A stretch of DNA of 324 nucleotides from Escherichia coli (GTDB taxonomy: Bacteria; Pseudomonadota; Gammaproteobacteria; Enterobacterales; Enterobacteriaceae): NCBI RefSeq assembly GCF_003334385.1, contig NZ_QOWN01000205.1. One strand, given 5' to 3'. The position numbers and the translations under genes were made by a program. Positions 94 to 288 of this stretch are shown here, piece after piece (within the stretch, counting starts at the first letter, position 1; every line of letters begins with the position of its first letter). The notes under the pieces were generated by a model, which did not search any database, was not told where the DNA came from, and saw only the letters and a program-made list of their open reading frames with translations.

Positions 94-288
94 ATGACAT
101 TTGTTCATCAGGTGATGCTGTACTTCTGTACGGCAGTCTGTGTTATGTATCTTCTTTCGGGTGGGTACAGGGCAGTGCGCGATTTCTGGCGCAGACAGAT
201 TGATAAAAGGGCCGCTGAGAAAATCAGCGCCAGTCAGTCAGCCGGAACAAAAACAGAAGCCCCACTCATTCCGGAACAACCTTCTTAA
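94..288 (+). CDS. Hypothetical small single-pass membrane protein, 64 aa
   Basis: Complete ORF running from ATG 94 to TAA 286-288, with an in-frame TAA at 85-87 immediately upstream, so ATG 94 is the first possible start. Residues 3-22 (FVHQVMLYFCTAVCVMYLLS) form an uninterrupted hydrophobic stretch of transmembrane length. It is followed by a cluster of basic residues (R26, R29, R33, R34, K38, R39), consistent with the positive-inside rule, i.e. N-terminus out and C-terminal tail cytoplasmic. The tail is hydrophilic and ends in a Pro-containing segment (APLIPEQPS). A purine-rich Shine-Dalgarno-like element lies 3-4 nt upstream. No competing ORF is present on the reverse strand. No homology search was possible. 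Confidence 0.6.
   Translation: MTFVHQVMLYFCTAVCVMYLLSGGYRAVRDFWRRQIDKRAAEKISASQSAGTKTEAPLIPEQPS
100..159 (+). other. Predicted transmembrane helix (residues 3-22 of the 64-aa ORF)
   Basis: Twenty consecutive mostly hydrophobic or aromatic residues, with no charged residue except a single His. They are bounded downstream by a GG-Y-R motif and a basic juxtamembrane stretch (RAVRDFWRRQIDKR). Judged by eye, without a prediction program. Confidence 0.55.

Follow-up and report, generated by a model that had tools for sequence, protein, structure and literature searches.

The open reading frame (ORF) at positions 94–288 of the analysed Escherichia coli DNA, a stretch of 324 nucleotides referred to here as the window, is a genuine, conserved gene under purifying selection. 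Judged by profile matches, its product is a member of the already catalogued protein family DUF1378, which is without assigned function. Members of this family lie persistently adjacent to phage lysis genes, across unrelated holin and endolysin families. We propose, with a probability of roughly 45%, that DUF1378 may be a non-essential accessory inner-membrane component of the phage lysis machinery. The sequence-only reading of the window had called any function of the encoded protein inferred, which holds for the DUF1378 family as a whole.

Table 1 Features of the window, with strand and the evidence on which each assignment is based
Feature	Position	Strand	Basis
5′ part of probable sRNA gene	1–34	−	Weak Rfam Esr41 match, hairpin and U7, PasA/PasC position
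Conserved leader 5′ of the DUF1378 start codon	78–93	+	Alignment of 34 unique upstream regions
DUF1378 family CDS, 64 aa	94–288, stop codon 286–288 included	+	ORF list, PF07125, PHROG 494, WP_047660256.1
Predicted transmembrane helix, residues ~3–25, ending GG[Y/W]	100–168	+	Hydropathy, conservation, pLDDT 77–86, dN/dS 0.15
Predicted basic cytoplasmic helix continuing the membrane helix, residues 26–51	169–246	+	Net charge, dN/dS, AlphaFold2
Variable, probably disordered Pro/Ser/Thr-containing tail, residues 52–64	247–285	+	pLDDT ~50, dN/dS 0.38
Start of DUF826 gene, 96 aa, running off the window	314–324	+	Annotated CDS, PHROG 311, Pfam PF05696 on homologues

Coding evidence

The 64-residue frame opens with the ATG at position 94 and closes with the stop codon at 286–288, a placement made by the sequence-only reading and borne out by the ORF list and by full-length family matches. 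The 324 bases are 100% identical to five complete E. coli genomes, and 1002 of 5426 complete E. coli genomes contain related DNA, at 2312 places in all. The ORF is intact, ATG-started and 59–64 codons for amino acids long in all 81 related loci (80 from IMG/VR and the E. coli locus). The earlier reading had let its claim stand or fall with conservation of the frame, and no disruption was seen in any of these loci.

Among 29 unique DNA versions of the ORF, the variable sites are distributed over codon positions 1, 2 and 3 as 11, 10 and 29, and the pooled dN/dS is 0.17. By part, dN/dS is 0.15 in the membrane helix, 0.05 in codons 26–44 (basic segment) and 0.38 in codons 45–59 (tail). No part of the protein is under stronger constraint than the basic helix of residues 26–51. 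Both of the other forward frames are interrupted by stops within the first 59 codons in 29 of the 29 unique sequences.

These patterns bear on the alternative that the ORF is untranslated and owes its conservation to overlapping non-coding functions in the antisense sRNA region, or to the upstream-extended frame of the neighbouring DUF826 gene that was once annotated as L0106. The weak ribosome-binding site described below would fit such an explanation, as would the overlap of the leader with a conserved sRNA-like element and its likely promoter, and the use of another frame across the region in the original annotation of phage 933W. The alternative is nevertheless highly improbable: substitutions fall mostly at third codon positions and dN/dS is low in the DUF1378 frame, the other two forward frames are interrupted throughout, protein homologues of 25–35% identity in other genera keep the same start and the same motif, and the sRNA-like element stops short of the ORF, at about window position 34.

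Translation signal and upstream antisense element

The leader TAACGGTAAG is invariant or nearly so across the 34 unique upstream regions. Prediction of pairing with the 3′ end of 16S rRNA found no canonical Shine–Dalgarno sequence before ATG 94; the value at the DUF1378 start (−3.0 kcal/mol) equals background, and the same prediction gives −7.4 kcal/mol for the holin gene and −8.1 kcal/mol for the lysozyme gene. Shine–Dalgarno-like motifs are recognisable in most distant DUF1378 homologues. A sigma-70 promoter scan found none on the plus strand near the DUF1378 gene.

The spacer between the esterase gene, which lies upstream, and the DUF1378 gene is as conserved as the coding sequence. On the minus strand, a terminator hairpin followed by U7 is located just outside the window and abuts the esterase stop codon. 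The full-length Rfam match of this strand to Esr41 is weak (20.5 bits, E 0.06–0.27, against a gathering score of 102). The sRNAs PasC and PasA of enteropathogenic E. coli (EPEC) lie at the same position and in the same orientation, with weak sequence similarity outside the terminator. The sRNA-like element is highly conserved, and its stem is kept through different loops. A perfect TTGACA on the minus strand (window 75–70), with an A/T-rich −10 candidate 16–18 nt downstream, may form a putative promoter of this element. The antisense element is no part of the finding on the DUF1378 protein.

Family membership and range

The 64-residue protein matches Pfam PF07125 (DUF1378) with an E-value of 7.4e-35 (119 bits; residues 1–59 on model positions 1–59 of 59) and PHROG 494 with an E-value of 1.5e-36. 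The exact protein is WP_047660256.1, encoded in a lambdoid prophage of E. coli, where NCBI's name for it is "DUF1378 family protein". The homology and HMM searches proposed by the sequence-only reading thus return a full-length match to DUF1378, and because of PF07125, PHROG 494 and the NCBI annotation of a sequence that is present in RefSeq, its view of the protein as unrecognised is wrong for current databases. NCBIfam has no match for the 64-residue protein, Pfam has none besides DUF1378, and PADLOC gave no match.

For older annotation, however, the label "unrecognised" was correct. The DUF1378 gene was missed in the 1999 record of phage 933W, which annotates in its place L0106, a GTG-started ORF of 148 residues. 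L0106 corresponds to the DUF826 frame, lengthened in the upstream direction so that it runs across the DUF1378 gene in a different frame. Since L0106 is such an extension, PHROG 8301 was discounted as a DUF1378–DUF826 fusion; other "fused" proteins in the databases look like frameshift or read-through variants. The idea of a split gene, with the long C-terminal tails of distant members representing a fused DUF826, was likewise not supported (probability 1.2%, with only a 17-residue look-alike motif). In a literature search, DUF1378 was mentioned in a single paper, solely as an annotation between nanS-p and S, with no experiment on any member; a further match to "DUF1378" proved to be a typo for DUF1738, and a search for the 933W ORF L0106 found nothing.

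The family was searched for with an HMM in 1.84 billion representative proteins and with two profile searches of 5.8 billion clusters. DUF1378 is a small family, with 38 clusters found among the 1.84 billion representatives at an E-value of 0.001 or better. Named members are from the Enterobacterales (Escherichia, Shigella, Citrobacter, Enterobacter, Klebsiella, Raoultella, Kosakonia, Mangrovibacter, Kluyvera, Phytobacter, Pantoea, Erwinia, Lonsdalea and Serratia), and a few further members come from phages whose records give Stenotrophomonas or Elizabethkingia as host. DUF1378 is restricted to phages and prophages, with protein-level matches in 309 phage records, mostly Stx-converting phages.

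The family core reads M-[TS]-x(6)-L-[YG]-F...L-[YL]-L-x-[AS]-G-G-[YW]-x-x-[IV]-R-x-[YW]. Across 45 diverse members including the window protein, G24 is invariant and L9, L20, G23 and R29 are conserved at 90% or more. The window protein has the defining elements of this core, an N-terminal hydrophobic helix ending in the nearly invariant GG[Y/W] and then the conserved arginine. With the rest of the family it shares the pattern M-T-F...LYF...SGG[Y/W]..R..[Y/W], the length class and the genomic neighbourhood. It belongs to a short-tailed branch found in Escherichia and Citrobacter; the members of a long-tailed branch comprise 80–91 residues and possess a conserved helical tail ending ...TATST.GPV.

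Protein architecture

The best 19-residue Kyte–Doolittle window of the protein (residues 3–21) scores 1.81, and the Wimley–White octanol sum of the membrane segment is approximately −8 kcal/mol. Both values support the N-terminal transmembrane helix of the sequence-only reading, which had beforehand made its proposal depend on a topology analysis; hydropathy analysis does give a transmembrane segment. The 20 residues after the helix contain seven K/R versus three D/E, and the N-terminus has zero basic residues. For the 15 residues that directly follow the membrane helix the net charge is +4, and for residues 26–64 it is +3. By the positive-inside rule, the basic residues after the helix and their absence from the N-terminus predict an N-out, C-in orientation, and 12 of 12 diverse members show this distribution of charge. 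From these properties we infer a membrane location for the protein and a single-pass topology, N-out and C-in, with a minimal periplasmic part.

The AlphaFold2 model, based on an alignment of 45 sequences, shows one uninterrupted helix from residue 3 to residue 51, followed by a low-confidence tail (residues 52–64), with a mean pLDDT of 69 and values of 77–86 in the membrane part. The earlier description of a positively charged amphipathic juxtamembrane segment is supported as to charge (net +4) and not supported as to amphipathicity: with a hydrophobic moment of only 0.28 for RAVRDFWRRQIDKRAAEK, the juxtamembrane helix is better described as basic and not clearly amphipathic. The disordered hydrophilic tail that had also been suggested is supported by a pLDDT of about 50 and the lack of secondary structure over residues 52–64. 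Variation in tail length gives rise to proteins of 59, 60 or 64 residues. Against the PDB, the membrane helix gave one marginal match, eukaryotic TRAP-gamma (E 8e-4, 23 bits), which we take as compositional.

Gene order in the source prophage and its relatives

In the source prophage, the genes are arranged in the order Q antiterminator, three tRNAs, SASA/NanS-p sialate O-acetylesterase, DUF1378, DUF826, class II (S21-type) holin and lysozyme, with Rz further along, beyond the lysozyme gene. The holin is assigned by its matches to families of the S21 type, and the N-terminus of the lysozyme is SAR-like, in that basic residues are followed by a weak membrane segment rich in Ala, Gly and Ser. 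The order esterase–DUF1378–DUF826–holin is kept in 80 of 80 IMG/VR loci, as far as the sequence extends, at esterase identities ranging from 46% to 100%, and the same order is found in Citrobacter braakii.

The downstream gene beginning M-S-E, for which a synteny check had been suggested, is real and encodes DUF826 (CDS at 12314–12604 of the source locus, L001). It follows DUF1378 in all 71 lambdoid loci with a complete downstream ORF. DUF826 is strongly acidic, with a net charge of −10 to −15, and combines a conserved helical N-terminal half with a variable Pro-rich tail. A terminator-like hairpin is located between the DUF826 and holin genes. Prophage PP2 of EPEC E2348/69 possesses the esterase, holin, lysozyme and Rz genes and neither DUF1378 nor DUF826; the cassette can therefore exist without both.

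Other backbones show different arrangements. In Mu-like phages, the trio esterase–DUF1378–DUF826 is flanked by the tail-fibre genes and com/mom, at a distance from the lysis genes. P2-like prophages have the order lysozyme, LysB, LysC, esterase, DUF1378 and gpR, with DUF826 absent, an order that looks like the insertion of an esterase gene into an older spanin–DUF1378 junction. In Erwinia tracheiphila, the DUF1378 gene comes after a tail-fibre assembly gene in an IS-rich region, and not after a lysis gene.

This conservation of gene order raises a serious rival to a role in lysis, namely that DUF1378 works with the NanS-p esterase module and the acidic DUF826, for example by holding DUF826 or the esterase at the membrane or by control of esterase release. 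DUF1378 follows a SASA/NanS-p esterase in every context seen in the Escherichia/Citrobacter branch, on three unrelated backbones: lambdoid/Stx (81 loci; L138), Mu-like and P2-like phages. DUF826 comes next in the Mu-like phages as it does in the 71 lambdoid loci, the terminator-like hairpin closes the trio ahead of the holin gene, and the basic tail of DUF1378 is electrostatically complementary to DUF826. We nevertheless consider this explanation unlikely, as the long-tailed branch, Stenotrophomonas phage BUCT709 and locus L095 lack both the esterase and DUF826, yet their DUF1378 genes adjoin a spanin or endolysin gene, and as the P2-like phages lack DUF826 and carry an esterase that looks inserted between spanin and DUF1378.

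Position in the lysis cassettes of distant members

In distant relatives, DUF1378 almost always closes the lysis cassette and immediately follows the spanin gene or genes, as it does in 35 of 35 IMG/VR loci and in nine of 11 other contexts. The 35 loci are a census of the long-tailed branch, with an Rz-like spanin upstream in every one, and in about 28 of them the spanin gene ends at the DUF1378 start. Klebsiella prophages have the order holin, lysozyme, Rz and DUF1378; in Mangrovibacter, the holin and lysozyme genes are followed by those for i-spanin, o-spanin and DUF1378. Three phage contigs carry muramidase, holin or holin candidate, Rz and DUF1378, another carries holin, lysozyme, i-spanin and DUF1378, and a further one has holin, lysozyme and DUF1378 in that order. 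Among the contigs that carry DUF1378 after a spanin gene, the one compared has enterobacterial phages as its relatives. Phage BUCT709 combines a holin, a SAR lysozyme and an Rz-like spanin with DUF1378, which in phage EKP1 likewise stands last in the lysis cassette, after the spanin. The upstream spanin gene shares a 4-nt stop/start overlap with DUF1378 in five of nine individually examined contexts, which suggests translational coupling. Terminator scans 3′ of DUF1378 in four relatives gave one clear hairpin, in L083.

At least three holin families and two endolysin families are represented among the neighbouring genes, so that the constant element is the lysis cassette and not one particular partner. 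Seven of ten neighbouring endolysins have SAR-like N-termini and the other three are soluble muramidases without an N-terminal hydrophobic segment; the latter led us to reject a specificity of DUF1378 for SAR endolysins, the association being with lysis cassettes in general and not only with pinholin and SAR systems. A function as holin or antiholin was also rejected, as DUF1378 has no Pfam or PHROG holin match and one membrane helix only. A separate holin or holin candidate is present in every cassette examined.

Insertions are tolerated at the end of a lysis operon, which is another way in which adjacency to lysis genes can come about. DUF1378 might be a "moron"-type membrane protein apart from lysis, with a function in superinfection exclusion or in modulating a host membrane protein such as a sensor kinase or transporter. 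Its size and layout are like those of known small membrane regulators, lysis-operon ends are known insertion sites (bor follows Rz in 933W), and the E. tracheiphila gene follows a tail-fibre assembly gene. We give this explanation little weight. PADLOC, NCBIfam and Pfam yielded no match besides DUF1378 itself, a plus-strand promoter of its own was not found, the spanin stop/start overlap in many relatives points to late co-expression and not to expression in the lysogen, and the position after Rz in 35 of 35 loci is tighter than expected of a drifting accessory gene.

The sequence-only reading had offered the host regulators MgrB, AcrZ, MgtS and SafA as points of comparison. DUF1378 resembles them in its small size and single membrane helix; however, it has no sequence match or relationship to them, and its gene is phage-borne, in a late operon of the prophage and not a host chromosomal locus. 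A role as regulator of a host sensor kinase or transporter finds no support.

Comparison with known lysis proteins

The releasin gp25 of phage Mu is a protein of 99 residues, N-out and C-in, that is encoded downstream of the spanins and is needed to free the SAR endolysin (PMC9239132). DUF1378 is likewise predicted to be an N-out, C-in single-pass protein with almost no periplasmic part, and as in gp25 (DUF2730) the membrane helix ends ..AGG and is followed by aromatic and basic residues. Distant DUF1378 genes are also located downstream of spanin genes, and many of the neighbouring endolysins are of the SAR type. However, the DUF1378 protein is 64 rather than 99 residues long, the cytoplasmic part of the releasin is acidic whereas that of DUF1378 is basic (+3 over residues 26–64), Mu is without a holin whereas DUF1378 occurs with holins, and DUF1378 is also found beside soluble endolysins. 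The window protein has no DUF2730 match in Pfam, and hhalign gives a probability of 0.2% over eight aligned columns for DUF1378 and of 0.1% for DUF826; homology to the Mu releasin was rejected on these values.

A second point of reference is Lcc6 (SO_4795) of the Shewanella prophage LambdaSo, which comprises 65 residues, with a membrane helix at residues 5–22 and 43 cytoplasmic residues, and which is required at the pinholin step; LambdaSo is lambdoid, with a pinholin and a SAR endolysin (bioRxiv 10.1101/2024.01.23.576932). DUF1378 is similar to Lcc6 by description only, with 64 residues, a helix at approximately 3–25 and about 39 residues after it, and the prophage from which it comes also combines an S21-type holin with a SAR-type lysozyme. 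In contrast to DUF1378, lcc6 adjoins xis, far from the lysis cassette. Among the matches listed from the searches of 1.84 billion representatives and 5.8 billion clusters, many of which are without an organism name, none was named as Shewanella. The contig that encodes the 65-residue member P0150 has its relatives among Klebsiella and Salmonella phages and not in Shewanella.

Proposed role in lysis

The precedents of Mu releasin gp25 and LambdaSo Lcc6 make a role of DUF1378 in lysis plausible. The proposed mechanism is as follows. DUF1378 would be transcribed along with the phage late genes and would span the inner membrane once, N-out, leaving no more than two or three residues exposed on the outside; the membrane helix, which closes with the conserved GG[Y/W] motif, would pass directly into the basic cytoplasmic helix. 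From this position in the cytoplasmic membrane, it would modulate the timing or efficiency of holin triggering or of endolysin release, and would neither make holes nor degrade the wall itself. We infer that DUF1378 may interact with the holin, the endolysin, the spanin or DUF826, and that it may have an effect on lysis. What speaks against a lysis role is that the closest constant neighbour in Escherichia is the NanS-p esterase, not the holin, and that in Mu-like phages the trio lies apart from the lysis genes. The dissimilarity to the Mu releasin, the occurrence beside soluble muramidases and the start codon without a canonical ribosome-binding site also count against it. Cloned S21–R21 cassettes lyse cells without a DUF1378-type gene, and, as prophage PP2 also lacks DUF1378, any role of the protein in lysis must be modulatory.

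Implications for the family and for Stx phages

As a sequence feature, the window is ordinary, containing an annotated member of a catalogued family, and its value is that of a lead. As the two recent studies of the releasin and Lcc6 show, lysis can involve small N-out, C-in membrane proteins that had not been suspected of such a role. DUF1378 could represent an unrecognised class of lysis factor, a counterpart of Mu releasin and Lcc6 that is widespread in Enterobacterales prophages and tunes the lysis of Stx phages, although we regard this wider claim as doubtful. Were it true, DUF1378 might anchor the acidic DUF826 at the membrane. In Stx phages, lysis timing governs toxin release, and DUF1378 sits there at the edge of the cassette; if the claim holds, the protein would tune the timing of the pinholin and SAR endolysin, and hence the amounts of Shiga toxin and NanS-p released per induced cell.

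Module transfer among phage backbones

The esterase–DUF1378 pair, with or without DUF826, has been transferred as a module to three unrelated phage backbones. In the P2-like phages, the gene for the o-spanin LysC is followed by the esterase and then by DUF1378, and DUF826 is present in every lambdoid and Mu-like version. Prophage PP2 of E. coli E2348/69, an enteropathogenic (EPEC) strain, is a natural variant in which the DUF1378 and DUF826 genes are both absent from the locus; its order is esterase, a 447-nt spacer bearing the small RNA PasA, holin, lysozyme and Rz.

Features of the lysis region and related loci
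Feature	Location	Strand	Position or basis
Probable small RNA gene	Window 1-34, continuing ~43 nt past the window start (E. coli prophage locus L001, 12034..11960)	minus	Terminator, Rfam, synteny, conservation
Possible promoter of the antisense RNA	Window 46-75	minus	-35 and -10 candidates
Leader TAACGGTAAG	Window 78-93		5' of ATG 94; conservation
DUF826 protein gene	Window 314-324; L001 12314-12604		Downstream of DUF1378
Terminator-like hairpin, 12 pairs, then TTTGTTGTTG	L001 12614-12642	+	~290 nt beyond the 3' end of the window
DUF1378 region and L0106	Phage 933W (AF125520), 2762-2941 and 2808-3254
Lysozyme and S21-type holin homologue	Stenotrophomonas phage BUCT709, 3721-4477
Esterase–DUF1378 module carriers	L134/L135 (P2-like prophages); L088, L136, L137 (Mu-like phages)
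Prophage PP2	E. coli E2348/69, NC_011601 740900-745500

Probable antisense RNA and the DUF1378 leader

The spacer between the esterase and DUF1378 probably carries a small RNA gene in antisense orientation. A terminator hairpin (CCGCCAGC...GCTGGCGG) with a U7 tract lies immediately past the esterase stop codon, and the element is retained across loci, with loops that differ and a stem that is maintained. The Rfam model Esr41 matches the element over its full length, albeit weakly (20.5 bits, with a gathering score of 102), and the EPEC small RNAs PasC and PasA have the same orientation and position. Upstream on the same strand, the sequence alone suggests a possible promoter, comprising a perfect -35 TTGACA (the reverse complement of window 70-75) and, 16–18 nt downstream, an A/T-rich -10 candidate (TAAAAA, TTAAAA or TTTAAA); this pair was not reported by a consensus promoter scan.

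Directly 5' of the DUF1378 start codon, TAACGGTAAG shows no or almost no variation among 34 unique loci. Its pairing with the 3' end of 16S rRNA (-3.0 kcal/mol) is not above background, and it could serve in ribosome binding of a non-canonical kind, in regulation or in connection with a small RNA. Within the coding sequence, a 10-nt inverted repeat (window 186-195 and 224-233, 90% complementary, arms 28 nt apart) is probably due to chance.

Annotation of related phages

The original annotation of phage 933W lacks a DUF1378 gene and has L0106 in its place, which is the DUF826 reading frame lengthened upstream so that it crosses DUF1378 in a different frame. PHROG 8301 (139 positions) may derive from over-extended or frameshifted reading frames of this kind. 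The lysozyme of BUCT709 shares 76% identity with the E. coli prophage lysozyme, and an unannotated homologue of the S21-type holin (43% identity) is found at 3721-3915 on the plus strand, overlapped by a hypothetical coding sequence annotated on the minus strand (3651-3887).

DUF826 and the terminator before the holin gene

The DUF826 protein is strongly acidic (net charge -10 to -15), whereas the tail of DUF1378 is basic, so that their charges are complementary. The N-terminal half of DUF826 is helical and conserved, and its proline-rich tail varies. In the E. coli prophage locus, the terminator-like hairpin comes after the stop codon of DUF826 and precedes the holin gene; the esterase, DUF1378 and DUF826 may therefore constitute one unit, with read-through only under Q antitermination.
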